From the NCBI GenBank assembly GCA_028282845.1, contig JANQGY010000015.1:77372-141371 (forward strand): a stretch of 64,000 bases of DNA, in the 5' to 3' direction. Of the stretch, positions 1 through 44,595 are shown one piece after another. Under the pieces are notes generated by a model, which had not been told where the DNA came from, did not search any database, and saw nothing but the letters and a program-made list of their open reading frames with translations. The first letter of the stretch is position 1, and every line of letters begins with the position of its first letter. This DNA is from a bacterium (lineage in GTDB: Bacteria; Fidelibacterota; Marinisomatia; Marinisomatales; JAHJCW01). The translations under genes were made by a program, and so were the position numbers.

Positions 1-1469
1 TCAAAATAAGCTAAATCATTTTTATATTCAATTAATTCGTAGTATTTTGATTTTTTATCGATTGAGTTGATAATCACCACCACTAATTCGGATATGTAGT
101 ACAGTATTAGGCTGGGGTCATTTAGATAGTATTTTCTTGTTTTAAATATTTTTTTCCTTTTAGTAGTTGTCTCGGAACGACGACATTTTGAAATATCATT
201 TTCAGTAAAATTTTCAATATCATCTATCAATTTATTATATAATTGGTCAATGCCATCGTGAATAGAATCATATTTATTATCAAATGATGTGTTTAGACTT
301 AAATATTCAACTAATTCATTTTTTGTAATATTATACATAAAATCTATACTATTGGTCATTGCAAAATCGTTATTAATTTTTTTGGAGTCAATATCTTCCA
401 CAATGGTATTGCTATAATCAACAACAAGATTGACTTTTGAATATTTTGTTAACAAAATTCCAAAGGATAGCATTATTGCACGGGGTGCTATGATAAATAT
501 TATTGCAGTTAATGACCATAAATGTATCCATTGTCCAGCGTTTTCTGACCCGCGATTGATATTAATATTTGAAAGATCAATAGCTGTTGGTAAATCAAAA
601 TTTATAGCGTTTGCTGCTGGTGTTAAAACCACATTGAGTATTTTTTCAACAATATGTGCATTTAGAAATGTACTCTCCCAGTTCACTCTATACTCATTTG
701 TCAGTGAACTAAAATACATCCCAAGAATTATCCCTAGACATAATCCAATAGAATACAAATTTAATCCAATTTTGACTTTCCTAATTATTTGTTTTTCAAA
801 TACTTTTAAATATTCATTAATATATTTATTAGTTGCATTAGTAAAAACTTCGCTCAATGAGAATTGAATACTTTTAAGTTTATTTTTTTTATCTTTATCT
901 ATTTTCTTTTCTAAAATCCATAAAATACTTCTAACTATAAATCCCCTTTTCTGACCTTTATAATGTTCTGCTTTCTTATTATACTTGGTCGAAAAAATGT
1001 TTATTAAATTATTTATTAATTTATAAATTGAATTTACTTTAGATTTTATTTGGTTCTCCGCAAGAACAACAAATACATTTAAATATCTAAATATTTTTAA
1101 TGAAATTATTCCTATATTCCAAAATATCAATGATAATATTGGTACAGACAATAAATTAATTTGTTTGCTCTCTCCGAGTCCACTTGTAAAAGTACCTAAT
1201 AGAATAAAAATAAAAAACAGTGCTATCACAAGTATAGTTGGTACAAAATTAATGCCTAAAACAATATTTACAGGAATTTTCTGATTTAGTAAGTAATCAT
1301 ATATTGTATTTGTTCTTTTAATGAGTCTTCTGGATATATTTTCTTCAGATTGGACATCTTTTGCAGCAGAAAATTTTATCTGGGAGGGGATTAATTCACT
1401 ATGTCTGTCGACACTTTCAAATGAATTAATTAATAATATTTTGGACGCTATTTTTGAATCAAATTTCAC
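1..1469 (-). CDS. Hypothetical multi-pass membrane protein, C-terminal end beyond the window (489 codons visible); possibly DUF2868-like
   Basis: Hand translation of the minus strand gives an uninterrupted frame from GTG 1469-1467 (preceded by in-frame TAA) to position 1. It is absent from the ORF track because it has no stop in the window. Hydrophobic helices include VPTILVIALFFIFILLG, LSVPILSLIFWNIGIISL, IGLNLYSIGLCLGIILGMYF and WIHLWSLTAIIFIIAP. YRVNWESTFLNAH...GQWIHLWSLTA recalls DUF2868 from memory only. Confidence 0.55.
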   Translation of the reverse strand, partial: MKFDSKIASKILLINSFESVDRHSELIPSQIKFSAAKDVQSEENISRRLIKRTNTIYDYLLNQKIPVNIVLGINFVPTILVIALFFIFILLGTFTSGLGESKQINLLSVPILSLIFWNIGIISLKIFRYLNVFVVLAENQIKSKVNSIYKLINNLINIFSTKYNKKAEHYKGQKRGFIVRSILWILEKKIDKDKKNKLKSIQFSLSEVFTNATNKYINEYLKVFEKQIIRKVKIGLNLYSIGLCLGIILGMYFSSLTNEYRVNWESTFLNAHIVEKILNVVLTPAANAINFDLPTAIDLSNININRGSENAGQWIHLWSLTAIIFIIAPRAIMLSFGILLTKYSKVNLVVDYSNTIVEDIDSKKINNDFAMTNSIDFMYNITKNELVEYLSLNTSFDNKYDSIHDGIDQLYNKLIDDIENFTENDISKCRRSETTTKRKKIFKTRKYYLNDPSLILYYISELVVVIINSIDKKSKYYELIEYKNDLAYF

Positions 1470-1539
1470 AACTAATTAAAAATTCCTGTGTTTTTTTCTT
1501 CATAAAATGACGAGATAGGTAATTTAACAAATCAAAGTG

Positions 1540-1614
1540 TCGGGGCGGCGAGATTTGAACTCGCGACCTCTTGACCCCCAGTCAAGCGCGCTAACCGGGC
1601 TGCGCCACGCCCCG
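1540..1614 (-). tRNA. tRNA-Pro (anticodon GGG)
   Basis: Reverse complement CGGGGCG-TG-GCGC...GCGC-CTTGA-CTGGGGG-TCAAG-AGGTC-GCGAG-TTCAAAT-CTCGC-CGCCCCG-A folds as a 75-nt cloverleaf. The anticodon loop is CT-GGG-GG. No CCA is encoded. Confidence 0.9.
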
Positions 1615-1648
1615 TGCATAAAAATTCAATGGGAAATTACTGATAATA

Positions 1649-2038
1649 TTAATTATTAATCAGATCTAATATTGATTTTAGCTGATCACGAACTTCTAAT
1701 AAGACCGAAGCTTCTTTGGGACTTGGAGATGATTTTTCCTTTTCAACTTTTGAAGGAGTTTCCTCCTTTGGCTTTTCAACTATCTGTGGTGTAATCGCCA
1801 ACTGGTTCCGCGCACCTTCGATTGTAAATTTTTTATCATACAATAATTCTTTAATCCGCAAGATAATATCAATATCTTTTTTGCGGTAGGTCCGGTTTCC
1901 CGCTCTATTTTTTGGCGGTCTTAGCTCCCGAAATTCAGTCTCCCAGTACCGCAACACATAAGATTTTAAACCGGTAAGATTGCAAGCCTCCCCTATTGAA
2001 TAATACAATTTCTTAATATCGGTGTTCTTTTCTTCCAT
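1649..2038 (-). CDS. MerR-family HTH transcriptional regulator
   Basis: 129 aa. The N-terminal YSIGEACNLTGLKSYVLRYWETEF...RTYRKKDI is the MerR winged-HTH signature. ATG start. Confidence 0.85.
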   Translation of the reverse strand: MEEKNTDIKKLYYSIGEACNLTGLKSYVLRYWETEFRELRPPKNRAGNRTYRKKDIDIILRIKELLYDKKFTIEGARNQLAITPQIVEKPKEETPSKVEKEKSSPSPKEASVLLEVRDQLKSILDLINN

Positions 2039-2130
2039 AATAATTATTTAAAGTATTACTTCATATTAATAATAATATATTATTTAAGCAATACTTTAAT
2101 GAAGTAGTGGATATGTTTTAATAACCGTAT

Positions 2131-3528
2131 CTATTGATTGACATATTTATTATGAAAATCTATCCATTTTGGCAATACATTTTGAAGCAAAGCTTTAGAA
2201 GGTAGAAATGCAATTCGTAAATGGTGCGTATCGGATTTTTGACCGAAACCTGATCCGTTGACAACACAAAGTCCGGTTTCTTCCAATAAACTCATGCAAT
2301 AATCGAAATCTGTTTTGCCACTAGCCAGATGATTGATCCTTGGAAATAGGTATAATGCTCCGATTTTTCCGAAACATTCCATTCCATCCATTTCTTTAAA
2401 AGAATTGCGTATTATTGTTGCTTTTTCAAACAGCTCATCCAATATCTGTTTTTTCTCGCTGTTGAAAGAAGAAAATTCATCACTGTTTTGGTCGGGAGGA
2501 TTGACCATTAAATAAACTAATGCCTGTCCAATGGTATTAGAACAAAGATTAACCGATGATACTTTAAATAATAGTTCTATGAATGATAGTTCTGAATTCT
2601 CAACATCGGGTGGATTTCTAACTTCCAAATATCCGCCTCTTTGTCCGCATTCACCGTAAAATCCCTTCGAAACACTATGCAGACTGAACAAAGGTATTTT
2701 GCGATCACCGATCGCTTTCGCAAATGAAGTAAATATTCCACCATATAAATTTTCCTGATAAACCTCGTCAGCGATAATCGCAAGATCATGCTTACCAGCG
2801 AAGTCAATAACTTGCTTGATGCTATCATCGTTAAGTATCGCCCCGGTTGGATTAGCGGGATTTATCACAACGATTGCTTTAACGTTTATACCATCGCTGA
2901 TAGCGGCATTAATAGAGTCCTCTAAATTTTCTATATTCAAAGACCAATCATCGTCTTCATCAGGATAATAGTTTACCTGTGCTCCACCACAACGTCGAAT
3001 TGTTGCCGAATATAATGGATATTGCGGAATCGGGATCATAATTCCGTCTTTATTATTTGTGATAAGTAATTCCAAAACGGCTTTAGCGCCTTCGCTTGCA
3101 CCATCTGTCAAGAAAATATTATCCGGATTTGATTGTAAATTCGGTTGCGAAGAGTCAATTCCATCACGCTTATCAATATACTTAGCTACGGACTCACGAA
3201 TAAAAGAAAATCCCTTACTTTCAGTGTATGCCCCCAAACCCGTTTCCATTTGTGTTAATAAATCGTCGGCTAAGTCAAGTGCATAGTTCGAAATTGATTT
3301 TAACTCGCCGATCTTTCTTTCTCTTAAAATCAATTTGGGATTTTCGAGAAGTGATAGAATATCACGGTAAAATGTAATCGGCTTTTGGCCAAGTGCTTGC
3401 GGATTTCCGATATTACAGGGAATAATCTGCTTTCCCTCTTTTTTCAATACCGCTGCTCTTTGAGGAATCCTCCCCCGCACCGCGTATTCTAATTCAACAA
3501 TATTTTTATTAACAATAATACTTTTCAT
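2131..3528 (-). CDS. PLP-dependent aminotransferase, alanine aminotransferase (ALT/GPT)-like
   Basis: 465 aa. The PLP-lysine region SVSKGFYGECGQRGGY matches the ALT-type SxSKG..GECG.RGGY signature. INPANPTG is present. Confidence 0.85.
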   Translation of the reverse strand: MKSIIVNKNIVELEYAVRGRIPQRAAVLKKEGKQIIPCNIGNPQALGQKPITFYRDILSLLENPKLILRERKIGELKSISNYALDLADDLLTQMETGLGAYTESKGFSFIRESVAKYIDKRDGIDSSQPNLQSNPDNIFLTDGASEGAKAVLELLITNNKDGIMIPIPQYPLYSATIRRCGGAQVNYYPDEDDDWSLNIENLEDSINAAISDGINVKAIVVINPANPTGAILNDDSIKQVIDFAGKHDLAIIADEVYQENLYGGIFTSFAKAIGDRKIPLFSLHSVSKGFYGECGQRGGYLEVRNPPDVENSELSFIELLFKVSSVNLCSNTIGQALVYLMVNPPDQNSDEFSSFNSEKKQILDELFEKATIIRNSFKEMDGMECFGKIGALYLFPRINHLASGKTDFDYCMSLLEETGLCVVNGSGFGQKSDTHHLRIAFLPSKALLQNVLPKWIDFHNKYVNQ

Positions 3529-3540
3529 TTTATCTCACCA

Positions 3541-3567
3541 ATTAAAAAGGGCGAATATTTTCGCCCT
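3541..3567 (-). terminator. Rho-independent terminator after pnp
   Basis: Minus strand AGGGCGAA-AATA-TTCGCCCT followed by TTTTAAT, starting 6 nt after the pnp stop. Confidence 0.6.
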
Positions 3568-3573
3568 GATTAT

Positions 3574-5751
3574 TTATCTGTTTCTTTTGAAAGAATTGCC
3601 CCTTCCGCGATTATTATGTTTTCTTTTATTCCTATCGCGATTTCCGCGATCCTTTTTCTCGGGCTCGCGATAACCTTCCGGTTTCGGTAGCAATACTTTC
3701 CGGCTTAGGTCCAAACGTCCTTGATCATCTATTTTGATCAGTTTAACTTTGATCATATCGCCGGTTTTTACGACATCCTCAACTTTTTCGGTACGTTTCC
3801 AATCAAGCTCAGAAATATGGCATAAGCCTTCCTTCCCTGGAGCTATTTCAACAAAAGCTCCAAAAGTCATAAGCCGTGTCACAATTCCATCAAACTCCAT
3901 TCCGACTTCGGGTTCAAAAGTACTGGCTTTCACTAATTCAAGCGCATCGTTGCATTTGGCAACATCATCGCCTGCGATCGAGACCAATCCTTCATCATCT
4001 ACATCTATTTCGCACTCGGTATCGGCAATAATTTGTTTGATGTTTTTACCACCGGGACCGATCAATGCACCGATCTTGTCAGGATCAATCTGCAGGAACA
4101 GTATTCGAGGAGCGTATTCCGAAATTTCATTCGGATCTGGCGCTGCTGTATTCATTAAATCCAAAATATGCAGTCTGCCACGTCTCGCTTGCTCAAGCGC
4201 TTCTTCCATTAATTCAAATGAAATACCGTCAATTTTTAGATCCAACTGGATTGCAGTTATACCGTCTTCAGTGCCAGCTACTTTGAAATCCATATCACCT
4301 AAATGGTCTTCGACGCCCAAGATATCGCTGAGTATAGCGTATTTCTGATCTTCAAGGATCAAGCCCATAGCGATTCCGGCGACATGCTTCTCAATATTGG
4401 CTCCGGCATTCATCAATGCCAATGATCCTCCACAAACTGAAGCCATTGAAGACGAACCGTTTGACTCCGTTATTTCCGAAACTAATCTTATCGTATATGG
4501 GAAATCATCATATCTCGGCAATACCGGTTTTAAAGCCCTCTCCGCCAAATTACCATGGCCAATTTCACGCCGACTGGTAAATCCAATCCTACCAACTTCA
4601 CCAACCGAATATGGCGGAAAATTATAATGTAACATGAACTGTTTTTTATAATCCTCTTCCATTCCGTCAATGATCTGTTCATCGCGTTTGGTGCCTAAAG
4701 TAGCCACAACAAGAGCCTGCGTCTCACCGCGGGTAAATAGCGTTGAACCATGCGTACGCGGTAATATCCCCTGCTCAATAGTGATTTGTCTTATATCGGT
4801 TAATTTTCTTCCGTCGGAACGTACTTTTTTCGCAAGAATTTGGTCTCTGAAAGCAGTCTTCAGTTTATCATTAATGATATTATTAATATCCTTTTCCTGC
4901 TCAGGAAAATCCTCTTCTAATTTTTCGATAGCTGTCTCGTGCAATGCATCAGTAGCATTCTGACGCTCTAATTTGTCAGCTATTTTAATTATTTTAGCAA
5001 TTTCCTTATCAACAAGCTCACTTACCTTCTTCTCAAGATTTTCATCTTTTTCGATCGGGACAACTTCTCGCTTGCTCACTTTAAGATCTTTGTGCATTTC
5101 TTTTTGCAGTTCAATGATCTGAACGATGCTTTCATAGGCAAATTTTAAAGCATCAATCAATTGATCCTCAGTAATAATCTTTGCTTCGCCTTCTACCATC
5201 ACAATCGAGTTTTCATTGCCGGAAACGATCAGATCAATTTGTGATTCCTCCATCTCTTTAATAGTTGGGAACACAATAAACTTGTTGTCAATCATTCCAA
5301 CCGAAACGGTGGCGATCGGACCTTCCCAAGGTATATCGGATACGGTCAATGCCGCCGATGCACCAATACCGGCTAATACACCGGCCGAATTTTTACCATC
5401 GCTTGCTAAAGCGGTAACAATTACCTGAGTTTCATTTCTATAATCTTTTGGAAATAGCGGTCTGATCGGACGATCTGTCAATCGGCTTGTCAATACCTCT
5501 TTTTCGGACGGTTTAGCTTCACGCTTAAAAAAGCCGCCCGGAATTTTTCCACCGGCATAATGCCGCTCACGATATTCTACTTGCAGCGGGAAATAATCTA
5601 AATCTTCCCGTATTTCTTTTGCTGAATTAACGGCAGCTAAAATCGTGGTTTCGCCATAAGTTACCAGTACTGCCCCATCGGATTGCCGTGCAATACGACC
5701 GGTTTCAATACTAAGCGTTCTTCCGCCAATTTCCTTTTTATATAATTTCAT
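3574..5751 (-). CDS. pnp: Polyribonucleotide nucleotidyltransferase (PNPase)
   Basis: 725 aa with two RNase PH domains, then KH and S1 (GMEFDGIVTRLMTFGAFVEI) and a basic tail. It lies directly downstream of rpsO, as is usual. Confidence 0.97.
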   Translation of the reverse strand: MKLYKKEIGGRTLSIETGRIARQSDGAVLVTYGETTILAAVNSAKEIREDLDYFPLQVEYRERHYAGGKIPGGFFKREAKPSEKEVLTSRLTDRPIRPLFPKDYRNETQVIVTALASDGKNSAGVLAGIGASAALTVSDIPWEGPIATVSVGMIDNKFIVFPTIKEMEESQIDLIVSGNENSIVMVEGEAKIITEDQLIDALKFAYESIVQIIELQKEMHKDLKVSKREVVPIEKDENLEKKVSELVDKEIAKIIKIADKLERQNATDALHETAIEKLEEDFPEQEKDINNIINDKLKTAFRDQILAKKVRSDGRKLTDIRQITIEQGILPRTHGSTLFTRGETQALVVATLGTKRDEQIIDGMEEDYKKQFMLHYNFPPYSVGEVGRIGFTSRREIGHGNLAERALKPVLPRYDDFPYTIRLVSEITESNGSSSMASVCGGSLALMNAGANIEKHVAGIAMGLILEDQKYAILSDILGVEDHLGDMDFKVAGTEDGITAIQLDLKIDGISFELMEEALEQARRGRLHILDLMNTAAPDPNEISEYAPRILFLQIDPDKIGALIGPGGKNIKQIIADTECEIDVDDEGLVSIAGDDVAKCNDALELVKASTFEPEVGMEFDGIVTRLMTFGAFVEIAPGKEGLCHISELDWKRTEKVEDVVKTGDMIKVKLIKIDDQGRLDLSRKVLLPKPEGYREPEKKDRGNRDRNKRKHNNRGRGNSFKRNR

Positions 5752-6979: not shown

Positions 6980-7611
6980 TGCTTCTCGAATGTTTCAATC
7001 TTTATCGAATCATCTATTCGATAATTTCCAACCGCATTGCGAACAAGTTTTATCAAATGCCCAACAGTTCCAAGCGCTTTGGCTATATCACTACCCAATA
7101 CTCTAATATAGGTTCCTTTGGAGCAAGTTACGGAAAATTCAATGAGATCATTTTCAAGTTTGATCAATTTAAGGTCATAAATCTCAATTTCAATTGATTG
7201 GCGTTTAATTTCAATATTTTTGCGAGCAAGATCATACAATTTTTTCCCACCCACCTTTTTAGCTGAAAACATCGGTGGTATCTGTTTCTGCTTGCCAATA
7301 AAACCATTTAATATTTTTTCAACCATTTTAATTGACAATTCGGGTACCGCCGACCGATTTACTATTTTACCTTCAATGTCAAGTGTATCGGTTTCAACAC
7401 CTAACTTTAGTGTTGCAGTGTAGGATTTATTCTCTGAACTAACTGCAGTTAATTGTTTAGTATCTTTACCTGTACCGACTATCAAAACTCCCTCGGCGAA
7501 TGGATCCAATGTTCCGCCATGGCCAACTTTTTTCTCTTTCGTAAGATTACGTATCTTTTTAACTACATCAAAAGATGTCCAATCAACCGGCTTATATATA
7601 TTATAAATCAT
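6958..7611 (-). CDS. truB: tRNA pseudouridine(55) synthase
   Basis: KPVDWTSFDVV...GHGGTLDPFAEGVL contains the catalytic Asp motif. The track start 7635 is TTG; ATG 7611 gives the usual N-terminus. Confidence 0.92.
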   Translation of the reverse strand: MIYNIYKPVDWTSFDVVKKIRNLTKEKKVGHGGTLDPFAEGVLIVGTGKDTKQLTAVSSENKSYTATLKLGVETDTLDIEGKIVNRSAVPELSIKMVEKILNGFIGKQKQIPPMFSAKKVGGKKLYDLARKNIEIKRQSIEIEIYDLKLIKLENDLIEFSVTCSKGTYIRVLGSDIAKALGTVGHLIKLVRNAVGNYRIDDSIKIETFEKQWKNISL

Positions 7612-7969
7612 TTGAGCTTTGGTGTATAGTATCAATTAACCGGTCAATTTTCTCTGAATATTCAATTGTTTCATCATAATAAAATGTCAATTCAGGTATA
7701 TTTTTAATATGTAATTCAGGTGCTAAATATTTACGAAACGTACCTTTCAGCAAATTTAATCCGGCGGTTATTTCTTCCGTATCTAAACGGGGTTTCAGAA
7801 CGCTATAAAATACTTTAGCCATTCGTAAATCCGGTGTGATCTTAGCAGATGTAAAGGTAATAAATCCTAAATGTGACAGGTCAATATATCTAACTTTTAT
7901 CTCGCCGAGAATTTCTAATAATTGATGTTCGATCCTCTCGGTACGCTTGTACGGTTTTTCTGATCTCAA
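7601..7969 (-). CDS. rbfA: Ribosome-binding factor A
   Basis: 122 aa in the position typical for RbfA between infB and truB. Only a TTG start is available (7969), overlapping the infB stop as TTGA. Confidence 0.88.
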   Translation of the reverse strand: MRSEKPYKRTERIEHQLLEILGEIKVRYIDLSHLGFITFTSAKITPDLRMAKVFYSVLKPRLDTEEITAGLNLLKGTFRKYLAPELHIKNIPELTFYYDETIEYSEKIDRLIDTIHQSSNDL

Positions 7970-10485
7970 GATGCTTCAAGCTTCCGTTTTACTTTAATGA
8001 TTTCATAAGCTTCTATGATATCGTTCTCATTATATTTCTTTACCTCTTCCAATCCAATACCGCATTCCAATCCTTCTTTTACTTCCTTGGCATCATCTTT
8101 AAAACGCTTAAGCGATGTAATGGCTTGATTGTCAAACAGTATTTCGTCATCACGTATCAGCCTTGCTTTAGCATTACGCGAAATAAGGCCTTCTTCTACC
8201 TTAGCGCCTGCAATAAATCCGATTTTGGGAATTTTGAATTGCGTCAGTACGATAGCCCTGCCAAGTATTTCTATTTTCTGCTCCGGTTCCAACAAACCTT
8301 CTAAAGCAAGTTTAAGTTCTTCAACCGCTTTATATATAATATTATAAGTGCGAATATCAACACCGGTACGTTTGGCTTGTAATTTCGCATTGGAACCGAC
8401 CTGAACATTAAAACCGACAATTACCGCTTTAGATGCTTCAGCAAGCAGCACATCCGATTCGGCAACCATTCCGACTGATTTATGAATTATATTAAGGCCT
8501 ACTTCACCGGTATTTAATTTCATTAAGGTTTCGGATAAAGCTTCAATCGAGCCGTCCACATCACCTTTAATAATCAGCGGCAACTCCTTCATACTACCTT
8601 CTTTGATCATAGCTGACATAGAATCTAAAGTATGGGCCACAATTTTCTTTTGGTCAATTTCACGGCTTCTGCGCTGACGTTCATTGGCAATTCTTTTTAA
8701 TTCGCGTTCATCTTCCAACGCTACGAATATATCGGCAGCCTGCGGTACTTTATCAAATCCCAAGATTTGTACCGAATCAGATGGAAACGCTTTTTTGATG
8801 CGCTTCCCTCTCTCATTCATAATCGCTCTCACTTTTCCGGGGTAATTACTACATAAGAATGGGTCGCCGACATTTAAAGTACCTTTCTGAATAAGTATGG
8901 TAGCAATTGGTCCATAACCTTTATCAAGCCGTGAATCAACAACAGTTCCTTTTGCCAAGGTATCTTTATTGGCTCTCAATTCCAACATTTCCGCTTCTAA
9001 TAATATTGCGGTCATCAGGTCATCTATCCCGGTTCCGTTTTTAGCCGAAGTTGGAATACTTTGTACTTTTCCGCCCCAACTTTCTACCAATACATTGTGA
9101 TCGGCAAGTTGACGCTTAACTCTTTCTTCATCGGCGCCCGGCTTATCAATTTTATTGATCGCCACCACAATTGGTGCATCGGCAGCTTTGGCGTGATCAA
9201 TAGCCTCAATTGTTTGCGGCATAACGGCATCATCGGCGGCGACAACTAACACAACAATATCGGTAACCTGAGCGCCGCGTGCCCGCATTGCGGTAAAAGC
9301 CTCATGTCCGGGAGTATCAATGAAGGTTATCGTTTTACCATCTTCCAATTCAACTTTGTAAGCGCCGATATGCTGAGTAATGCCGCCGGATTCACCTGCC
9401 ACTACATTTTCATTACGGATAAAATCTAAAATTGAGGTTTTACCATGATCAACATGACCCATTACCGTAACAACCGGAGCTCTTGAAACAGCATTATCGT
9501 CATCTTCTTCAGTGGTATCCAAAGAAAATAATTCGCCTTCATCAGTACTTTCCTGTTCAGCTTTATAACCAAATTCCTCAGCGATTAACTCGATAACATC
9601 CCATTCGAGCCTTTGATTAATGGTTGCCATTATTCCCAAACCAAAACAGGTCTTGATGATTTCACCGGACGGAACATCTAACAATTTTGACAACTCGTCA
9701 ACACTGGCAAATTCAGTGATTTTGATTTTATTAGGTTCATCGACATCCTGACCGTCAATTCTTTCGCCTTTATCTTTTTTATACTGCTTCTTCTTTTTCC
9801 GTGAATCTATTTTAGCCAAAGTTTGTCGAACAGTATCCTTGGTTTTCTGTGCCGTCTTATCCTCTTTTTTCGTACCGGATTTTTCCTTCTTGGGGCTTTT
9901 TCCTTTGCTATCTAAATCAGATAGGCTAATCTTTCTTAATTTGCGTTTTTTGGCGGGTTTCTCTTTGGGAGAATCACTTTTTGCAGGTTGTTTTGCATCC
10001 GTCTCCTGCTTAATCTCGGAAGGTTTTTGTTCTACTTCTTCTAAGTCTTTTTCTACTTTAGCTTCTACCGCTTTTTGTTGTTCTAATTCAGCTTTTTTTA
10101 ATTGTTCAGCGGCTTCTCGTTCTTTTTTCTCTCGGGCTATTTGTTTTTGTTTGGCTAATTCCGCCTCTTTAATACTCTTGGCTTCTTTTTTCTCAAGGTC
10201 GCGCTGCTCATCAAGGGAAAGTAATTTTAATTTTTTGCCACTGGCTTGTTTTTCTTTTATGCGTTCATCTTGAATTTCCCTGCGAATCTGATCCTTACGG
10301 TAACGTTCCACATTCTCTTTGTCTTTAGCAAATTCGGATAATATAATTTGATGGGTATTCTCATCTACCGGAGACATGTGGCTGGCAACTTCCACACCTT
10401 GATTCTTCAGAAACTCTAAAATCTCAGTGTGAGAAATATTCAGTTCCTTGGCAATTTGAAATATTCTTAATGGTTTATTTGCCAT
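7966..10485 (-). CDS. infB: Translation initiation factor IF-2
   Basis: 839 aa with a K/E-rich N-terminal region, a GTPase domain (GHVDHGKTS, DTPGH, NKID) and C-terminal IF-2 domains. Confidence 0.97.
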   Translation of the reverse strand: MANKPLRIFQIAKELNISHTEILEFLKNQGVEVASHMSPVDENTHQIILSEFAKDKENVERYRKDQIRREIQDERIKEKQASGKKLKLLSLDEQRDLEKKEAKSIKEAELAKQKQIAREKKEREAAEQLKKAELEQQKAVEAKVEKDLEEVEQKPSEIKQETDAKQPAKSDSPKEKPAKKRKLRKISLSDLDSKGKSPKKEKSGTKKEDKTAQKTKDTVRQTLAKIDSRKKKKQYKKDKGERIDGQDVDEPNKIKITEFASVDELSKLLDVPSGEIIKTCFGLGIMATINQRLEWDVIELIAEEFGYKAEQESTDEGELFSLDTTEEDDDNAVSRAPVVTVMGHVDHGKTSILDFIRNENVVAGESGGITQHIGAYKVELEDGKTITFIDTPGHEAFTAMRARGAQVTDIVVLVVAADDAVMPQTIEAIDHAKAADAPIVVAINKIDKPGADEERVKRQLADHNVLVESWGGKVQSIPTSAKNGTGIDDLMTAILLEAEMLELRANKDTLAKGTVVDSRLDKGYGPIATILIQKGTLNVGDPFLCSNYPGKVRAIMNERGKRIKKAFPSDSVQILGFDKVPQAADIFVALEDERELKRIANERQRRSREIDQKKIVAHTLDSMSAMIKEGSMKELPLIIKGDVDGSIEALSETLMKLNTGEVGLNIIHKSVGMVAESDVLLAEASKAVIVGFNVQVGSNAKLQAKRTGVDIRTYNIIYKAVEELKLALEGLLEPEQKIEILGRAIVLTQFKIPKIGFIAGAKVEEGLISRNAKARLIRDDEILFDNQAITSLKRFKDDAKEVKEGLECGIGLEEVKKYNENDIIEAYEIIKVKRKLEAS

Positions 10486-35683: not shown

Positions 35684-36619
35684 TTAATGGGTGAAATTTA
35701 GTTCGATTCCCTCGAATTTCTTAAGCCTATATTTCTTACCCAAAGTAACGGCAATGCCGTCAAGCCGAATATCCTGTTGTATATTATTAGTACCAAGATA
35801 ATGATAAATAGCCTTTTCGAGTTTTTTGAGTTTGGGCATATCTATTTTTAATTCCGGTGAACCGATTTGTTCCTTGGCAAAGGTTTTTACCTCATTAAAA
35901 ATCAATATTCCATTTTTTTCTGAAATAATGTCAATCTCACCATAAGGATGACAGTTTTCATTCATCCCTATAATCCAATGTCCATCATTCATTAACCTGC
36001 ACGCTGCAAGTTGTTCTCCGACTTTCCCTATTCGTTTATTTTCCGCAAGCCACTTGATTGAAGGTAAGTTCTGTTTTACCGGTTTGAATGACTTGCGGTG
36101 GATTGGCGTCGCTTTGAATTTAATAAGCGTCTCGATATGACTTTTGGTACCATATCCTTTATGTTTGGCAAATTCAAATTCCGGAAATATTATGTCATAA
36201 TTCTGCATGATTCTATCACGTGTAACCTTAGCAATAATTGATGCTGCCATGATCTCTTTAACCTTAGTATCACCCTTAACAATGCCCTCATTCTTAATTA
36301 TTTGATTGGGCAGTTGATAGCCGTCAATTAAAGCTAAGCTTGGTTTTTGATTGAGCCTGCCAAGTGCCATTTGCATCGCTTTATGAGTAGCCGCAAGGAT
36401 ATTCAGTCGGTCGATTTCAGTTTCATTGATAATTCCAATCCCAACTGAACTTGCCGCTGACTGAATTTCTTCAAATAGTAATTCCCGTTTTTTAGGAGTC
36501 AATTTTTTGGAATCACGTAGTCCTTCAATTTCTGCACCGTCTAAAATAACGGCAGCAGCCACCACTGGACCCGCTAACGGGCCCCTACCCGCTTCATCCA
36601 CACCGGCTATTATCGCCAA
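35684..36619 (-). CDS. rnhB: Ribonuclease HII fused to a YraN-family (UPF0102) endonuclease-like domain
   Basis: The N-terminal IAGVDEAGRGPLAGPVV... is RNase HII through about aa 190. The C-terminal GKVGEQLAACRL...GEIDIISEKNGILIFNEVKT matches the YraN pattern. TTG start overlaps the comEC end. Confidence 0.88.
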   Translation of the reverse strand: MAIIAGVDEAGRGPLAGPVVAAAVILDGAEIEGLRDSKKLTPKKRELLFEEIQSAASSVGIGIINETEIDRLNILAATHKAMQMALGRLNQKPSLALIDGYQLPNQIIKNEGIVKGDTKVKEIMAASIIAKVTRDRIMQNYDIIFPEFEFAKHKGYGTKSHIETLIKFKATPIHRKSFKPVKQNLPSIKWLAENKRIGKVGEQLAACRLMNDGHWIIGMNENCHPYGEIDIISEKNGILIFNEVKTFAKEQIGSPELKIDMPKLKKLEKAIYHYLGTNNIQQDIRLDGIAVTLGKKYRLKKFEGIELNFTH

Positions 36620-39102: not shown

Positions 39103-39243
39103 ATGATCACATTCAGTGAACGACAATTACAAATCCCAAAGATGAGCAAGCCGGTTTATTTGGTGATAGGTGGTATGTTAAAATTTGGCAGCACCTACAC
39201 TCCGGCGATAAACCGGTTCAAATTTAAGCAGAAGGAGGCGTGA
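39103..39243 (+). CDS. Possible 46-aa upstream ORF coupled to the thiolase-like gene
   Basis: Hand translation: MITFSERQLQIPKMSKPVYLVIGGMLKFGSTYTPAINRFKFKQKEA. The stop TGA overlaps ATG 39243 (TGATG). Coding status is uncertain. Confidence 0.25.
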   Translation: MITFSERQLQIPKMSKPVYLVIGGMLKFGSTYTPAINRFKFKQKEA

Positions 39244-40349
39244 TGAATGTCGCAATCTTAGGAGTTGGATTTTGTGGATCCTTTCCAAAATCGGATGGGT
39301 TATCTTATCGAGAATTAATTCGTAGAGCAGCTACTCAAGCTTACGCGGATGCCGGCATAGAAGCCGCTGAGCTTGAAGGCGCTGTATCTTGCGAAGAAGA
39401 CTTCATCTCAGGCTATTCCATCTCCGACGAATATGTTCCCGATCAATTAGGTGTACAGATGAAATCCGTTTACACCATCTGCGGTGATTTTTTGCATGGA
39501 CTCTCCTCTGCTACAATGCAACTCAAGACCGGTCGTTTCAAACTTTTGGCTGTCGAGTCGTATTGTAAAGCCAGCAATATCCTCAATAAGGATGAAGTAT
39601 TAAACTTTGCATACGATCCTGTGTGGAATCGTTTTGATGTTACGCCCAATTATTTAGCAGGCATTGAAATGCAACAATTCCTCGAACGTTCCGAGTATTC
39701 CGCCGACGATGTGGCGAATGTTGTCACCGACGCCAAGGCTAAGGGTCTATCCAATAGTTTGGCACCCTACGGATCGCATCTGCCCAAGAATGAAATTCTT
39801 GACGGTCGGTCGGTAGCCAGTCCAGTGACAGAGGCTATGATTGCTAAACCGGCCGATGCTGCTGTCGTCTTCGTTCTTGGAACGCAAGAAGCGAATATTA
39901 AAAAAGCCCGCAAACCAGTCTTTATTTCAGGTACCGGATGGAGTTCAGGCAATTCTGTTCTAGAACGCCGTGATCATGCGACCTCTACAGGTACAGTTGA
40001 TGCAGCAAAAATGGCTTTTTTGGAAGCAGGCGTTTCAGATCCGAAGAAAGACTTGGATGCTATTTATGTTTCAGACTTATACGCCCACCGTGCTCTTATT
40101 CATTTAGAGGCAATGGGAATTAAAGGTGGCTTGAACGAAAAAATTAATCCTGATGGTGGCTCAATATCAACAGGTGATCTTATTGAAGCAAACGGTGGAG
40201 CCCGACTTTACGATGCTGTCCTTCAACTTCGAGGTGAAGCCGGTAGCCACCAACTACCCAATGTTAAACGTGCCGCTGCACAAGGATGGAGAGGACTTCC
40301 CACTGATTCCTGTGCTGTTGTAGTAATTGATCAAGAAAGGAGGAGCTAA
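39243..40349 (+). CDS. Thiolase-like (SCP-x/nsLTP type) protein, subunit 1
   Basis: MNVAILGVGF... and C-terminal INPDGGSISTGDLIEANGGARLYDAVLQLRGEAG follow the SCP-x thiolase layout. AAGGAGG lies 4 nt upstream of ATG 39243. Confidence 0.85.
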   Translation: MNVAILGVGFCGSFPKSDGLSYRELIRRAATQAYADAGIEAAELEGAVSCEEDFISGYSISDEYVPDQLGVQMKSVYTICGDFLHGLSSATMQLKTGRFKLLAVESYCKASNILNKDEVLNFAYDPVWNRFDVTPNYLAGIEMQQFLERSEYSADDVANVVTDAKAKGLSNSLAPYGSHLPKNEILDGRSVASPVTEAMIAKPADAAVVFVLGTQEANIKKARKPVFISGTGWSSGNSVLERRDHATSTGTVDAAKMAFLEAGVSDPKKDLDAIYVSDLYAHRALIHLEAMGIKGGLNEKINPDGGSISTGDLIEANGGARLYDAVLQLRGEAGSHQLPNVKRAAAQGWRGLPTDSCAVVVIDQERRS

Positions 40350-40351
40350 TC

Positions 40352-42547
40352 ATGAGTTCAGCTAATCGAGTAGGTGTTATTGGTGCGGGAATGACTCGTT
40401 TCGTCCGTCGGGCGAAAGAAGCTCCCGGAGAATTAGCGGCAAAAGCCGTAGAAATGGCTTTGAAAGATGCCGGATTAACCATCAACGACATTGATGCCGT
40501 TATTCATGGAACGGCTCCTGACGCGTTTGATGGCGTGCACATGAAAGGTGAACATTTGATCGCCGGTTCAGGTGGCGTCAACAAGCCGTACATGCGACAT
40601 TTCGTGGGCGGTGGAACAGGTGTATTCAGCCCCATTCATGGTTGGATGCATGTTGCTTCCGGCAAATTCAAGACTTGCTTGGTTGTTTGTGAAGAAAAGA
40701 TGTCTCCCTGTGTGCCCCACCCGGCTGGCGCATTCCTGACAATCTTTGATCATACGACGGAACAACCACTAAAGCTTACATTGCTTCATATTTTTGCCAT
40801 CGAGATGTGCCGCTTCATGCACAAGTATGGCTACACGGAAGAAGAACTTGCACGCATTTCGGTAATCAGTAAAAAGAATGCGCTCGGCCATCCTGCCGCG
40901 CAGGTTGCGAAAGAGACTAGCGTGGAAGAAGTTATGGCCTCCCCTGTCCTTTCATGGCCTGTCAAACGTTTGGACATCAGCCCGACCTCAGATGGTGCGG
41001 TTGCAATCGTATTAGCAAATGAAGAAGTCACGCGCAAGCATTGCAAAGCTCCTGCATATATTGACGGTGTTGGTTTCCGTCTGGATACAGCTTACTGGTG
41101 CACACGTGACTTAGCCTATCCCGAATACGTTGCCAGAGCGGCCGGCGATGCATATAAGATGGCGGGAATATCAAACCCGGAAAAAGAAATTGACTTCTGG
41201 GAACCCTACGATCCCTTTGATTACAAAGCCCTTCATCATATGAATGGCTTGCTCCAGGATCCCACCGGAAAGAGAGTGAAAGAACTCCTGCTTTCAGGCG
41301 CATTTGAAAAGGATGGTTCTCATCCAATCTGCCCATCTGGCGGAGCCTTGGGTGTAGGTAACCCGATTGCAGCCACCGGTCTCATGAAGATTGCCGAGCT
41401 TTACTTCCAATTGACCGGCCAAGCCGGTGCGCGGCAGTTAAAGGGAGACCTCCAACGCGGTATCGCCCAAGCCTGGGGTGATCTCATGCAAGTAGGTACG
41501 GTCGTAATTATGAACGCCGACAAAGGAACGGTCTCCAAATCAACGCTATGGAAGGAAATGACAAAAGAAAATCTTCCCGGTGGAACGCCTATTAAAGACG
41601 TAAAAGAAGTTCCGTATGTCGATTACAAGCCTGAAATCAATTATTCTTGGGATAACGGCATGGCTCTAACAACATACTTAGAAGGTTTCAAAGCTGGAAA
41701 GATTAGGGGAAGTAAATGCCCATCATGTGGACGCATGATGATTCCGGCTCGCGCTTTCTGTGAAGTTTGTAACTTAAAAGAAGTCACGGACTACTACGAT
41801 CTTCCCGATACTGGTACGGTCAAAACCTTCACCCTTTCAAATGTGGATTGGGACTCATCAATGCTAGGAGATGGCAAAGTGAACATCTTTGCCGTGATAG
41901 AGATTGATGGTACGCAAGAAAATATGGGACTTGTCCATCGCATAAAAGATGTTGATCCAAAAGACGTGAAAGTCGGCATGCGCGTGAAAGCCGTATGGAA
42001 ACCGGAAGAAGAACGCACGGGCAACGTCATGGATCTGGATTATTTCCGTCCCCTCAAGGATGGAGATGCCACCGACGTCGCACCAACACGTATCAAACCG
42101 GTGGAACTTAACCCGGTGACAGCGAAATCACATCCGGGGAGAATTCCCTTGGACTATCGTTACACGGCCGGAATAGCGGGAATCAAATTTTATGAGGATT
42201 TGGCCCAAGGTAAACTTACCGGAACTTTGAGCGACGATGGCAAAACGATTCACATACCTCCCACACAATTCGATGAAAGGAAAATGTGCAGCATGGATGT
42301 GATCGCTAATGCCAAAGAGATTGATCCCAAGAGTGGAAAAATTGTAGGCTACACTATAGTGACGGAAAATCGCCAAGGCGAAGAATTAGCTAAACCGCAA
42401 GTGATCGTACAAGTGGGTTTCGATGGAGTGCACGGCACAATCTTCGGCAAATTGGAAACTGACAATCCTGAGGGCGTCAAGACCGGCTTGAACGTGGCTC
42501 TACAGCCGACGAAAGAATGCGGACCTAACTACGTGCTTTTTAAATAG
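40352..42547 (+). CDS. Thiolase-like domain fused to two DUF35 (zinc-ribbon/OB-fold) domains, subunit 2
   Basis: Residues 1 to about 390 are thiolase-like (VGVIGAGMTRF, CPSGGALGVGNPIAATG, QLTGQAG). They are followed by CPSCGRMMIPARAFCEVC plus an OB fold (DUF35), then a second DUF35-like OB region without the Cys ribbon. Confidence 0.85.
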   Translation: MSSANRVGVIGAGMTRFVRRAKEAPGELAAKAVEMALKDAGLTINDIDAVIHGTAPDAFDGVHMKGEHLIAGSGGVNKPYMRHFVGGGTGVFSPIHGWMHVASGKFKTCLVVCEEKMSPCVPHPAGAFLTIFDHTTEQPLKLTLLHIFAIEMCRFMHKYGYTEEELARISVISKKNALGHPAAQVAKETSVEEVMASPVLSWPVKRLDISPTSDGAVAIVLANEEVTRKHCKAPAYIDGVGFRLDTAYWCTRDLAYPEYVARAAGDAYKMAGISNPEKEIDFWEPYDPFDYKALHHMNGLLQDPTGKRVKELLLSGAFEKDGSHPICPSGGALGVGNPIAATGLMKIAELYFQLTGQAGARQLKGDLQRGIAQAWGDLMQVGTVVIMNADKGTVSKSTLWKEMTKENLPGGTPIKDVKEVPYVDYKPEINYSWDNGMALTTYLEGFKAGKIRGSKCPSCGRMMIPARAFCEVCNLKEVTDYYDLPDTGTVKTFTLSNVDWDSSMLGDGKVNIFAVIEIDGTQENMGLVHRIKDVDPKDVKVGMRVKAVWKPEEERTGNVMDLDYFRPLKDGDATDVAPTRIKPVELNPVTAKSHPGRIPLDYRYTAGIAGIKFYEDLAQGKLTGTLSDDGKTIHIPPTQFDERKMCSMDVIANAKEIDPKSGKIVGYTIVTENRQGEELAKPQVIVQVGFDGVHGTIFGKLETDNPEGVKTGLNVALQPTKECGPNYVLFK

Positions 42548-42754
42548 ATCGTAAATAAAGGAACTATTGAGTACATTCGCTCCTTGTGGGTGAATGTACT
42601 CGAGTATCCGAAAGGCGGCTGTGTGAGCAATATTTCAAACGAAAAATCCAACCTATACAATTAGATATCTTGATTCGATTCCTGAATATTCTGATACCTA
42701 TTAACTGCCTGAAGGATTTTTATTTGAATAATTTACCAATATATTCTAATATAG

Positions 42755-42782
42755 GTGCCTCGAAAATTTTGAGGCGCTTTTT
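42755..42782 (+). terminator. Rho-independent terminator about 200 nt downstream of the thiolase operon
   Basis: GTGCCTC-GAAAATTTT-GAGGCGC followed by TTTTT. Confidence 0.55.
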
Positions 42783-42791
42783 ATTAAATTT

Positions 42792-43478
42792 ATGGATCAT
42801 AGCTTAGCAAAAAACGGAGATAACCAACTCATTATATTGCGCTTGACTTGCGTAATAATCTTCGCAATTGCGATGGGAATATTGGAAGCTATTTGCGTTG
42901 TTTATATTCGACAAATAATTTTCCCGCCCGATGGCATTATCACTTCAACACCAAGCGCTAATTTTAATTTCTCTTACGAGATAATCCGTGAATTAATGAC
43001 AATAATCATGCTGACTACAGTAGCTATGATATCTGCCTATAATTGGCGAACCAGACTCGCAATGTTCTTTTTAGCTTTTGGCACCTGGGATATTCTCTAC
43101 TATATCGGACTAAAAATATTTTTGAATTGGCCTGCCAACATCATGGAATGGGATACACTATTTTTGATACCAATCGCCTGGTACAGTCCGGTCATCGTGC
43201 CCGTATTAATAAGTGTTTACTTCATTGCAGGCAGTATTTTTATCATTACCCATGAAGGCAACGGCACTAAACTTAAATTCACTCCAATGGTCATTATTTT
43301 ACAACTAATTGCATTTTGTATATGGTTATTTACGTTTATGAATAATACATCGCAGATTACTGAATTTGGCTACACTGATGTAAAATATTCATGGATTCTA
43401 TTTAATGTTGCTTTGCTATTTGGTATTGCAAGTTTACGTTTATCTTTAACAAAATCTACAAAAGTTGACAATGTCTAA
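42792..43478 (+). CDS. Polytopic membrane protein (hypothetical)
   Basis: 228 aa with about 6 hydrophobic helices. ATG start. Confidence 0.65.
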
Positions 43479-44595
43479 ATCAATTGGTATTCTAACAGCC
43501 GGTGGAGATAGTCCCGGTTTGAACGCTGCGATTCGAGCGATCGGTAAAACGGCGGAAAAAACCTATAATATGAATGTTATCGGATTTCGCGATGGTTTCA
43601 GAGGATTAATGGAAAATAGATTTGTCAGACTTCATAGTCAGGAACTATCGGGAATTCTTACGCATGGCGGTACTATTCTTGGCGCTAACCGTGATAAACC
43701 GCACAAAATGCCGGTTGGCGATAAAATTTTAGATATGACCGATGTACTGGCACAAACTTATCATAAGCATCATCTTGATGCCTTAATTTGTATCGGGGGT
43801 GGTGGCACGCAAAAAAATGCCTATAGATTATTGAGAAAAGGATTGAATATTGTTACTCTTCCTAAAACTATTGATAATGATGTTTTCGGTACGGATTTTA
43901 CATTTGGCTTTGACACTGCCATGGGCATTGCAACTGCGGCAATTGACCGCCTGCACAGCACCGCGCACAGCCATCATCGAATTATCGTGGTTGAAATAAT
44001 GGGACATAATACCGGTTGGCTTACCCTCGGAGCGGGTTTAGCCGGCGGAGCTGATGTGATACTAACTCCTGAGATTCCCTACGACAGCGACATAATCGCT
44101 GCTGCGATAAAAAACAGACGGAAAGAAGGTAAAAATTTCAGCATCGTTGCGATAGCTGAAGGCGCCGTTACTAATAAATCAGCTAAAAAACTAACTGCTG
44201 TTCAACAGAAATATGAATCAGCCTCCAATAAAGATGACAAGGAAAATCTTAGAGTAGAATACAAATTAATCGAGAAAAAAGTTACAGGACAAACCATGAA
44301 ATTATCCTCAAAGCTTGAAGAGTTAACCGGATTGGAATCGCGCGTAACTATTTTAGGACATGTCCAAAGAGGCGGCACACCCTCGGCTTATGATCGAGCG
44401 CTCGCAACACAGCTTGGCACTGCGTGCGTTGATCTTATTGAACAGGAACAATACGGTATCATGGTTGCTTTAAATAATGGCAAAGCCGAGCCAATTCCCT
44501 TAAAGGATATTGTCGGAATTAGAAAAACGATTCCCTTAGATCATCCATGGATTGTGAGCGCACGAGAGATCGGTGTCTGTTTAGGGGATGAATAA
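43471..44595 (+). CDS. pfkA: 6-phosphofructokinase (phosphoryl donor not resolved)
   Basis: It has [26 protein letters not shown] and GHVQRGG. ATG 43471 is used because the track start is TTG. Confidence 0.92.

Follow-up and report, generated by a model that had tools for sequence, protein, structure and literature searches.

What chemistry is left to a thiolase fold once its thiolase residues are gone? The question is raised by two adjacent plus-strand genes, here called S1 and S2, in a 64,000-nucleotide stretch of bacterial DNA (the window; GenBank assembly GCA_028282845.1, contig JANQGY010000015.1, positions 77,372 to 141,371 of the forward strand; GTDB lineage Bacteria; Fidelibacterota; Marinisomatia; Marinisomatales; JAHJCW01). 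The S1 open reading frame (ORF; 39243-40349) encodes 368 aa, and that of S2 (40352-42547) encodes 731 aa, in which a thiolase-like domain continues into a DUF35 module with an intact zinc ribbon and a probable second one without it. The pair is a member of a large, conserved and database-modelled family without functional characterization, and is best described as a heteromeric, Cys-less, tandem-DUF35 form of the DUF35-scaffolded thiolase-fold complexes. We propose, with a probability of about 0.4, that it acts as a heteromeric non-thiolytic C–C lyase that uses an aldolase-type mechanism on short or branched β-hydroxyacyl-CoAs.

DUF35-scaffolded thiolase-fold complexes are an emerging, versatile platform for C–C bond chemistry that includes the archaeal entry into the mevalonate pathway, archaeal fatty-acid synthesis, steroid side-chain aldolases, benzylsuccinate degradation and Friedel-Crafts acylases. 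The S1-S2 family extends this platform by a version built from four distinct modules, with zero canonical catalytic residues left; purifying selection on it is nonetheless very strong, with column identity across phyla of about 75%. If the pair is an aldolase-type lyase of branched-chain acyl-CoA catabolism, the family would fill a pathway gap with a new active-site solution in the thiolase fold.

Thiolase folds without thiolase residues

An earlier note on this DNA, made from the letters alone, read both genes as SCP-x-type thiolase folds, and profile searches, AlphaFold2 (AF2) models and Foldseek comparisons bear this out. In Pfam, S1 matches Thiolase_C_1 (55 bits) and S2 matches Thiolase_N, Thiolase_C_1, zf-ChsH2 (aa 444-473) and OB_ChsH2_C (aa 482-550 and a second stretch). 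The best NCBIfam model for S1 is by a wide margin PRK06066 (311.6 bits, short of its cutoff of 516), and S2 exceeds the cutoff of PRK06065 (531.9 against 455 bits). The AF2 models (mean predicted local distance difference test score, pLDDT, 87 for S1 and 84 for S2; predicted template modelling score, pTM, 0.90 and 0.85) show in both subunits the complete five-layer α–β–α–β–α fold of SCP2/archaeal-type thiolases, with Foldseek template modelling (TM) scores of 0.87-0.88 between S1 and the archaeal thiolase 6et9/6esq and a target-normalized TM of 0.89 between S2 and 7yvy. The top matches of S2 are 7yvy, 6esq, 4yzo, BbsB, Ltp2 and Sal, and matches to the thiolase-like parts of the pair also include SCP2 thiolases, TbSLP and PhlC. 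The best matches of S1 are thiolase models rather than 3-hydroxy-3-methylglutaryl-CoA (HMG-CoA) synthases (HMGCS); S1 is SCP2-thiolase-like and not 3-ketoacyl-ACP synthase III (KAS III)/HMGCS-like.

The catalytic positions of S2 are replaced, and the replacements are themselves conserved. HMMER alignments to solved thiolases uphold the earlier reading of GGGTG in place of the nucleophile motif (ACASG in 7yvy) and of GNP in place of GHP, and direct alignments set YDPF over the HDCF motif of the zebrafish and T. brucei SCP2 thiolases. Among 51 family members the nucleophile position is never Cys, and Gly87, Tyr286-Asp287-Pro288-Phe289, Cys327 and Gly336-Asn337-Pro338 are invariant. Cys120 is nearly invariant (at least 90% conserved), and some ten His residues show no or almost no variation (His63, 83, 96, 100, 123, 146, 180, 295, 296 and 324). 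The active-site loops at aa 81-90, 120-140 and 331-340 are invariant yet poorly modelled in the monomer, with pLDDT below 50 at aa 335-337, a pattern that would fit loops which become ordered only in the complex or with bound ligand.

In S1, whose orthologues share 57-92% identity, a Cys had been read at the nucleophile position, and Cys80 of the TICGD motif does align to that column; it is not conserved, however, for the 44 orthologues have Cys (22), Pro (15), Asn (3), Gly (2) or Thr (2) there, next to an invariant Gly81, a nearly invariant Asp82 and, two positions upstream, an invariant Thr78. Because only half of the orthologues have the Cys, it is not an essential nucleophile, nor does it count as evidence of a residual one. 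The HDCF position of S1 holds SDLY, and HMMER alignment to 4yzo agrees with the earlier reading of GDL instead of GHP, with Gly311-Asp312 invariant by column counts in the orthologue alignment. A conserved acidic loop (EEDFISGYSISDEYVPDQLG) contains the invariant residues E52, D53, G57, Y58, I60, D62, E63, Y64, P66, D67 and Q68, and pLDDT falls below 50 at aa 53-58 of the monomer model. At the equivalent position of S2, aa 55-63 (APDAFDGVH, 40514-40540) form another conserved acidic/His-rich loop of low model confidence, and the two loops may form an interface or a metal site.

Intact Cys-His-Cys triads were looked for in the alignments of both subunits and found in neither, so the reading of the pair as degenerate stands. 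The nucleophile Cys, the HDCF motif and the GHP His of canonical thiolases (EC 2.3.1.9 / 2.3.1.16, SCP2 type) are all missing. Residue by residue, the alignments show a complex that is predicted to be incapable of Cys-dependent thiolysis or Claisen condensation, and we consider it very likely that S1-S2 is not a thiolytic enzyme.

Tandem DUF35 modules

DUF35 is defined here as PF12172 zf-ChsH2 plus PF01796 OB_ChsH2_C. When the C-terminal region of S2 was checked against these profiles, module a matched both above the gathering score (zf-ChsH2, 28.1-30.3 bits against 23.2; OB_ChsH2_C, 42-60 bits against 27.1), as a complete first DUF35 module should; its limits were set by AF2 secondary structure. 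The zinc ribbon, described earlier as CPSC-x12-CEVC at about 41717-41770, was placed exactly, with the correction that its spacer is the x10 canonical for DUF35 and not x12. Module b had likewise been described as a DUF35-like OB module without the ribbon Cys, and its homology to module a (BLASTP E = 2e-6, in register, the four ribbon Cys replaced) supports this description, although on its own it scores below the gathering threshold (OB_ChsH2_C, 24.2 bits, E = 3.2e-5, against 27.1) and gives no ribbon match. The stand-alone orthologue of module b in locus L075 passes both DUF35 models (42.8 and 29.3 bits). Several fused homologues retain CxxC…CxxC in module b, and Desulfobulbales-type members have lost the ribbon Cys of module a; because the ribbon of one module or the other is lost in some members, zinc binding appears dispensable in parts of the family.

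A widespread family under a misleading name

The thiolase-DUF35-DUF35 fusion is common and is not peculiar to the window genome. The best 120 S2 homologues are all 701-745 aa long, with identical Pfam architecture and 62-93% identity, and the Marinimicrobia relatives share 85-93%. The family is abundant in metagenomes, with thousands of sequences, and in a scan of one genome per GTDB species at least 535 genomes from many phyla encode a relative. Relatives occur in Planctomycetota (including a Kuenenia metagenome-assembled genome, MAG), Myxococcota, Bradymonadales, Desulfobulbales and Acidimicrobiia, and also in Gemmatimonadota, Nitrospirales, SAR324, Anaerolineae and Krumholzibacteriota. Named matches to the family are almost all from uncultured lineages; the unfused family alone has 5,710 matches at E <= 1e-30, and the names among the matches listed are MAGs only. 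Cluster names and a further homology search, used to look for cultured hosts, likewise gave just MAG names and generic annotations.

Neighbourhood analysis placed S1 immediately upstream of S2 wherever the contig reaches upstream, and two arrangements were seen. In the fused form (47 (+2) loci) S1 is followed by the thiolase-DUF35a-DUF35b protein; in the unfused form (14 (+1) loci), found in relatives of 47-57% identity, there are four genes, for two thiolase-like proteins of about 383 and 387 aa and two DUF35 proteins of about 176 and 158 aa. A 355-aa DUF35-DUF35 protein (P0124) is also found among the library representatives. Across phyla, mean column identity is 73-75%, and within the fused family conservation is highest in the S2 thiolase-like domain (73-82% identity), followed by DUF35a (57-74%), S1 (about 57-68%) and DUF35b (40-53%). 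Natural fusions of S1 to S2 were also sought as Rosetta-stone evidence, and the candidate ORFs of 800-1279 aa in high-GC loci were rejected as ORF-calling artefacts, BLAST having given S2 modules only.

The gene pair is already modelled in NCBIfam as PRK06065 and PRK06066, models which cover proteins of about 390 aa and not the 731-aa fusion; the unfused L075 pair scores 642 and 487 bits against them. Both models are named only 'thiolase domain-containing protein', and literature searches on DUF35/thiolase and on thiolase-like aldolases found no paper on the S1-S2 family. Current records use either that name or 'acetyl-CoA C-acetyltransferase' (JGI and some NCBI records). The latter label is unjustified because the catalytic residues are missing, and it leads metabolic reconstructions astray in groups such as Marinimicrobia, Desulfobulbales, Planctomycetota and Myxococcota.

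Relatives at a greater distance (30-40% identity) also lack the Cys and have Asn at the GHP position. Three such loci (L083-L085) encode a thiolase-like pair and one DUF35 protein followed directly by an enoyl-CoA hydratase (ECH) gene, with the YD motif in one or both subunits of the pair; in L083 the motif is in both, and MaoC-like and CoA-transferase genes are also nearby. These features favour the aldolase reading of the family. Separately, a protein 97% identical to the bacterial S2-type protein of L075 (P0406) carries the label of a 'Candidatus Methanomethylicaceae archaeon' MAG; it lies on a 3.6-kb contig, and contamination during binning is a more probable explanation than true archaeal membership.

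Relation to characterized DUF35 complexes

The steroid side-chain retro-aldolases Ltp2-ChsH2 (6ok1) and Sal-Shy (9myr) share with S1-S2 the SCP2-thiolase fold, the Gly that S2 has at the nucleophile position and an obligatory DUF35 partner. In these enzymes the nucleophile Cys has become Gly (Gly89 in Sal) and HDCF has become YDHF (Ltp2) or YDCY (Sal), the Tyr of which (Ltp2 Tyr294, Sal Tyr302) is the catalytic base; the catalytic acid is Cys304, at the third motif position, in Sal and Tyr344 in Ltp2 (PMC12329534). In S2 the His-Asp of HDCF is likewise replaced by Tyr-Asp, and the motif correspondence stated for the two aldolases makes the invariant Tyr286 the equivalent of their catalytic Tyr (PMC12329534). 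All three proteins also have a residue other than His at the GHP position (Gln352 in Sal, Asn337 in S2), to which Ltp2 Tyr344 and Sal Gln352 were tentatively assigned by their +50 spacing from the motif Tyr. S1 has neither the Gly nor the Tyr-Asp, but Cys80 and SDLY at these positions. As far as residues can tell, the invariant Tyr-Asp and Gly of S2 at the Ltp2/Sal positions agree with, and strengthen, the suggestion of the earlier note that the pair forms a dedicated C–C bond complex, possibly aldolase-like.

Ltp2 and Sal are homodimers that carry a single type of DUF35; a MaoC-type hydratase supplies their β-hydroxyacyl-CoA, and they act on steroid-CoA esters. S1-S2, in contrast, comprises two thiolase-like subunits with two distinct DUF35s fused to one of them, is without a hydratase partner gene, and has a gene context that points to short or branched acyl-CoAs. 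The sequences are no more than about 20-24% identical.

Among solved structures, the best sequence and fold matches of both S1 and S2 are the archaeal DUF35-associated thiolases (7yvy from P. furiosus; 6esq/6et9 from M. thermolithotrophicus; 4yzo, ST0096). In the archaeal thiolase/HMG-CoA synthase complex, DUF35 bridges dimers of the thiolase superfamily, and the complex handles acetoacetyl-CoA and HMG-CoA. The archaeal thiolases keep the Cys/His machinery and are paired with a true HMG-CoA synthase or, in the ketothiolase/DUF35 pair, form an α2β2 assembly (bioRxiv 10.1101/2024.07.05.601840). S1 and S2, in contrast, are paralogues that both lack the thiolase machinery, and no HMGCS gene is present. 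BbsAB (7pxp) and PhlABC/MucABC (5m3k, 9vbo) also combine DUF35 with SCP2-type thiolase-fold subunits and give comparable fold scores. BbsB and PhlC both use an active-site Cys, however, and this residue is missing at the nucleophile position of S1-S2 (Gly87 in S2); PhlA and MucA are moreover KAS III/HMGCS-like, unlike the SCP2-thiolase-like S1.

The actinobacterial Ltp3 and Ltp4 resemble S1-S2 in being encoded by two adjacent paralogous SCP2-thiolase-like genes, and differ in belonging to steroid degradation and, probably, in not being orthologous. An aldol-lyase role has reportedly been proposed for them, with the canonical residues absent. Two 'lipid-transfer protein' models, PRK07937 and PRK07855, which from their lengths we take to be of the Ltp4 and Ltp3 type, give only 74-95 bits against cutoffs of 419 and 469. 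Ltp3 and Ltp4 are reported to be required for degrading C24-branched sterol side chains (Wilbrink et al. 2012, as cited in PMC10398937).

Gene context

The gene context in the window itself is uninformative; two recurrent contexts elsewhere bear on the substrate. In Desulfobulbales (a complete 5.56-Mb genome and several MAGs), genes for isovaleryl-CoA dehydrogenase (IVD), acetoacetate-CoA ligase (AACS) and an XRE-cupin regulator are divergent from an XRE-cupin gene followed by S1 and S2. The acyl-CoA dehydrogenase (ACAD) is identified as IVD by 607 bits to 4o5m and 521 bits to human IVD, the next class reaching 318 bits, and the ligase passes both acetoacetate-CoA ligase models (948 bits, above cutoff). 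Within 10 kb lie genes for a branched-chain aminotransferase (BCAT), a 2-oxoacid:ferredoxin oxidoreductase of the POR/VOR (pyruvate/2-ketoisovalerate) family and an acyl-CoA ligase. Leucine catabolism has IVD as its first committed enzyme and AACS at its end; free acetoacetate arises there from the cleavage of HMG-CoA, a β-hydroxyacyl-CoA, in a retro-aldol/Claisen reaction. In one of these loci (L082), two divergent XRE-HTH/cupin regulators occupy 7384-8678 between the IVD-AACS and S1-S2 genes and a third adjoins the BCAT/acyl-CoA ligase genes, an arrangement that suggests small-molecule control over the whole neighbourhood.

In the unfused form, genes for the large and small subunits of a mutase of the methylmalonyl-CoA mutase (MCM) type lie directly upstream in about ten loci, with MeaB and a corrinoid adenosyltransferase nearby, and the gene immediately downstream encodes a Bcd-like short-chain ACAD, in some cases accompanied by HdrA-like flavoproteins. 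The best PDB match of the mutase is HcmA (578 bits, against 503 for MCM). We considered whether it might be a 2-hydroxyisobutyryl-CoA mutase, which would feed a β-hydroxyacyl-CoA to an aldolase, and rejected this in favor of MCM, as RQY and VARGT are kept and MeaB co-occurs; these motifs presumably contain the Tyr and Arg residues with which MCM binds the carboxylate of its substrate. In L075, two HdrA-like/NfnB-like flavo-iron-sulfur proteins (747 and 644 aa; 852-5064) precede the adenosyltransferase, MCM, thiolase-like pair, DUF35s and ACAD, and L055, L058 and L080 are arranged likewise. The Bcd-like ACAD may therefore have a partner for electron bifurcation or confurcation in these proteins.

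Each of the two contexts suggests a role in the catabolism of short or branched acyl-CoAs, with the thiolase-like complex occupying the place at which a C–C cleaving enzyme is expected.

Proposed function and alternatives

The pair encodes four modules on two polypeptides, namely thiolase-like S1, thiolase-like S2, DUF35a and DUF35b, and it is likely that this architecture forms a complex. Solved DUF35 complexes have a thiolase-fold dimer with one DUF35 on each subunit as a cap, and Sal-Shy is an α-β-β-α assembly with one DUF35 per aldolase subunit (PMC12329534). Because the modules occur in a fixed 1:1:1:1 ratio, these structures suggest by analogy an S1:S2 heterodimer flanked by two non-identical DUF35 modules. 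The S2 thiolase-like domain, with its Gly at the nucleophile position and invariant Tyr286-Asp287, would be the putative catalytic subunit, in which Asn337 and the backbone could stabilize an acyl-CoA enolate, and S1 would be a diverged partner that completes the dimer and may lend its acidic loop. We hypothesize that such a complex could carry out a non-thiolytic, retro-aldol-type C–C cleavage of a short or branched β-hydroxyacyl-CoA that yields a carbonyl compound plus an acyl-CoA. Within this class, an HMG-CoA-lyase-like step of leucine/isovalerate catabolism, giving acetoacetate and acetyl-CoA, would be the most specific candidate; this role rests on gene context in one lineage, and we regard it as doubtful. 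Also rather doubtful, though it would be the most novel outcome, is a new class of heterodimeric thiolase-fold C–C lyase in which an active subunit is paired with a degenerate one, each has its own DUF35 cap, and the Tyr/Asn site is unlike that of Ltp2 or Sal. Such an enzyme would be an HMG-CoA lyase analogue without the TIM barrel, or a related aldolase for short or branched β-hydroxyacyl-CoAs. It would give many uncultured marine and anaerobic bacteria a step in the catabolism of leucine and branched-chain acyl-CoAs that is otherwise missing, or an alternative to it.

Several observations weigh against the proposed aldolase-type lyase. Both aldolase acid positions are unmatched in S2, where Pro288 stands for Sal Cys304 and Asn337 for Ltp2 Tyr344. 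Aldolase chemistry is for this reason plausible from the residues rather than established, and the proton donor would have to lie elsewhere, for example at Cys327, a conserved His, or the invariant Asp312 or acidic loop of S1. Foldseek cannot tell aldolases from true thiolases, as archaeal thiolases, BbsB, SCP2 thiolases, Ltp2, Sal, TbSLP and PhlC score alike. The IVD/AACS link comes from a single lineage and counts as one observation; the fused form has mixed neighbours, in which 132 proteins represent 117 Pfam families; in the window the pair lies among housekeeping genes, and ACAD, mutase and AACS are all missing; and no hydratase gene (MaoC or ECH) is present in the window or recurrent beside pairs of the PRK06065/66 type.

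One alternative is an unconventional thiolase or condensing enzyme that interconverts acetoacetyl-CoA (or another 3-ketoacyl-CoA) and two acyl-CoAs, either by direct attack of CoA from a second, DUF35-shaped CoA site or with Cys327 or Cys120 of S2 as the nucleophile. The nearest solved relatives are archaeal DUF35-associated acetoacetyl-CoA thiolases, the ligase adjacent to S1-S2 in Desulfobulbales makes acetoacetyl-CoA, which needs a thiolase, and Cys327 is invariant and Cys120 largely conserved. Yet every residue of the Cys / His-Asp-Cys / His machinery is invariantly replaced, and we know of no described thiolase without a nucleophile Cys. Sal, which also has Gly at that position, cannot perform thiolysis (PMC12329534), and a thiolase of this kind seems unlikely. 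The position of the MCM subunits, MeaB and adenosyltransferase directly upstream in about ten loci would suit a thiolase-fold decarboxylase for methylmalonyl-CoA, malonyl-CoA or a related carboxy-acyl-CoA, in which an oxyanion hole of Tyr and Asn would stabilize the enolate left once CO2 has gone, and which would link MCM to propionyl-CoA. The retained RQY…VARGT of the mutase, with its presumed carboxylate-binding role, is in line with this, and E. coli scpA-argK-scpB provides a precedent for a mutase-MeaB-decarboxylase set. Cys-less TbSLP has weak malonyl-CoA decarboxylase activity, as cited in PMC12329534, but Sal has none (PMC12329534). The mutase linkage is moreover missing from the window and from most fused-form loci, and a decarboxylase leaves the IVD/AACS context unexplained, so that we consider it quite unlikely.

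A non-catalytic protein, whether a scaffold, an acyl-CoA-binding protein or carrier, or a regulatory complex derived from a thiolase/DUF35 enzyme, would account for the loss of all canonical catalytic residues from both subunits and for the dispensability of zinc ribbons in parts of the family; catalytically inactive partners are a frequent feature of related heteromers in steroid degradation, as discussed in PMC11321319. Conservation nonetheless peaks at the former active-site loops (GGGTG, YDPF and CPSGGALGVGNPIAATG) and extends to the His residues listed above, a pattern typical of a working active site, and the scaffold modules lag behind the S2 thiolase-like domain in conservation, which makes loss of catalysis improbable. 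The PhlC, PhlB and MucABC subunits among the sequence and fold matches raise the further idea of a multicomponent C-acyltransferase (Friedel-Crafts acylase) for a secondary metabolite, as PhlABC and MucABC likewise combine DUF35 with a pair of unlike subunits from the thiolase superfamily. PhlC, however, requires Cys88 for catalysis (entry 9skm is described as its C88S variant), which S1-S2 lacks; S1 is not of the KAS III/HMGCS type, the neighbourhoods examined hold no biosynthetic genes, and such strong conservation across phyla is ill-suited to secondary metabolism. We therefore consider an acyltransferase of this type very improbable.

The operon and its surroundings

S1 and S2 form a self-contained bicistronic operon (Table 1). 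Each gene has the AAGGAGG Shine-Dalgarno sequence that had been reported for the two adjacent plus-strand genes, at 39232 and 40337. That of S2 is embedded in the 3′ end of S1, and the S2 ATG follows the S1 stop after a gap of just 2 nt, so the two genes are translationally coupled.

Table 1. Sequence features of the S1-S2 operon, in window coordinates.
Feature	Position	Strand	Evidence
S1 Shine-Dalgarno sequence AAGGAGG	39232..39238	+	Pattern search of the sequence
S1, degenerate thiolase-fold subunit, 368 aa, PRK06066-like	39243..40349	+	ORF, Pfam, NCBIfam, AF2, Foldseek
S1 conserved acidic loop EEDFISGYSISDEYVPDQLG, aa 51-70	39393..39452	+	Orthologue alignment
S1 TICGD, aa 78-82, Cys80 in the nucleophile column	39474..39488	+	Alignment, column counts
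S1 SDLY, aa 277-280, at the HDCF position, without catalytic Tyr or Cys	40071..40082	+	Alignment, column counts
S1 TGDL, aa 310-313, at the GHP position	40170..40181	+	HMMER alignment to 4yzo, column counts
S2 Shine-Dalgarno sequence AAGGAGG, within the S1 3′ end	40337..40343	+	Pattern search of the sequence
S2 thiolase-like domain, aa 1-395, PRK06065 family	40352..41536	+	Pfam, NCBIfam, Foldseek
S2 GGGTG, aa 86-90, Gly87 at the nucleophile Cys position	40607..40621	+	HMMER alignment to 7yvy ACASG
S2 YDPF, aa 286-289, at the HDCF position, invariant	41207..41218	+	Direct alignments to SCP2 thiolases
S2 CPSGGALGVGNP, aa 327-338, invariant Cys327, Asn337 replacing the GHP His	41330..41365	+	HMMER alignments
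S2 DUF35 module a, aa 422-570, zinc ribbon and OB fold	41615..42061	+	Pfam, PDB matches 3irb and PhlB
Zinc ribbon C456-x2-C459-x10-C470-x2-C473 of module a	41717..41770	+	Sequence read
S2 DUF35 module b, aa 593-731, OB fold, ribbon Cys lost (GTLSDDGKTIHIPPTQFDERKMC at 42221-42289)	42128..42544	+	
Terminator-like hairpin and T-run closing the S1-S2 operon	42753..42789	+	

A 46-aa ORF (MITFSERQLQIPKMSKPVYLVIGGMLKFGSTYTPAINRFKFKQKEA, 39103-39243, +), which is a called gene in the public assembly, precedes S1, its TGA overlapping the S1 ATG (tgATG). It is conserved at full length in two other Marinimicrobia-type loci (80% in L003, 63% in L002), outside which no clear match to it was found. Its segment KPVYLVIGGMLKFG looks like a thiolase N-terminal β-strand, and the ORF could be a leader or coupling upstream ORF, or the leftover of a partial duplication. 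Beyond S2, a strong and nearly perfect hairpin (GAGTACATTCGC…GTGAATGTACTC, 42567-42603, +) begins about 20 nt past the stop; it has no T-run and lies upstream of the real terminator. The entire 248-nt 3′ untranslated region (UTR) after S2 has a folding z of -5.4, and an Rfam scan of the leader and 3′ UTR for a riboswitch that might reveal a ligand gave zero matches.

The neighbours of the operon are comEC, an rnhB-yraN fusion, lepB, a 228-aa ORF and pfk. The 228-aa ORF (42792-43478, +), whose 3′ end overlaps the pfk ORF (start 43465), has zero Pfam or NCBIfam matches; it was considered as a third component of the system and rejected, as it matches no family and is kept only in the closest relative, L003 (67%). 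The GC content of S1 and S2 is 0.46-0.48 against about 0.36 in the flanks, with the surplus mostly at codon positions 1 and 2, and GC content at third codon positions is 0.36 in S1, typical for window genes, and 0.47 in S2. Given this distribution and the typical third-position value of S1, GC content was set aside as weak evidence of horizontal transfer. The rnhB-yraN fusion (35684-36619, −) is a single 311-aa ORF in which ribonuclease HII (aa 1-185) is joined to a YraN/UPF0102 endonuclease-like domain (aa 192-305). S1, S2, the 228-aa ORF and pfk together make up a plus-strand block (39240-44595), and nearly all other window ORFs of at least 150 aa are on the minus strand.

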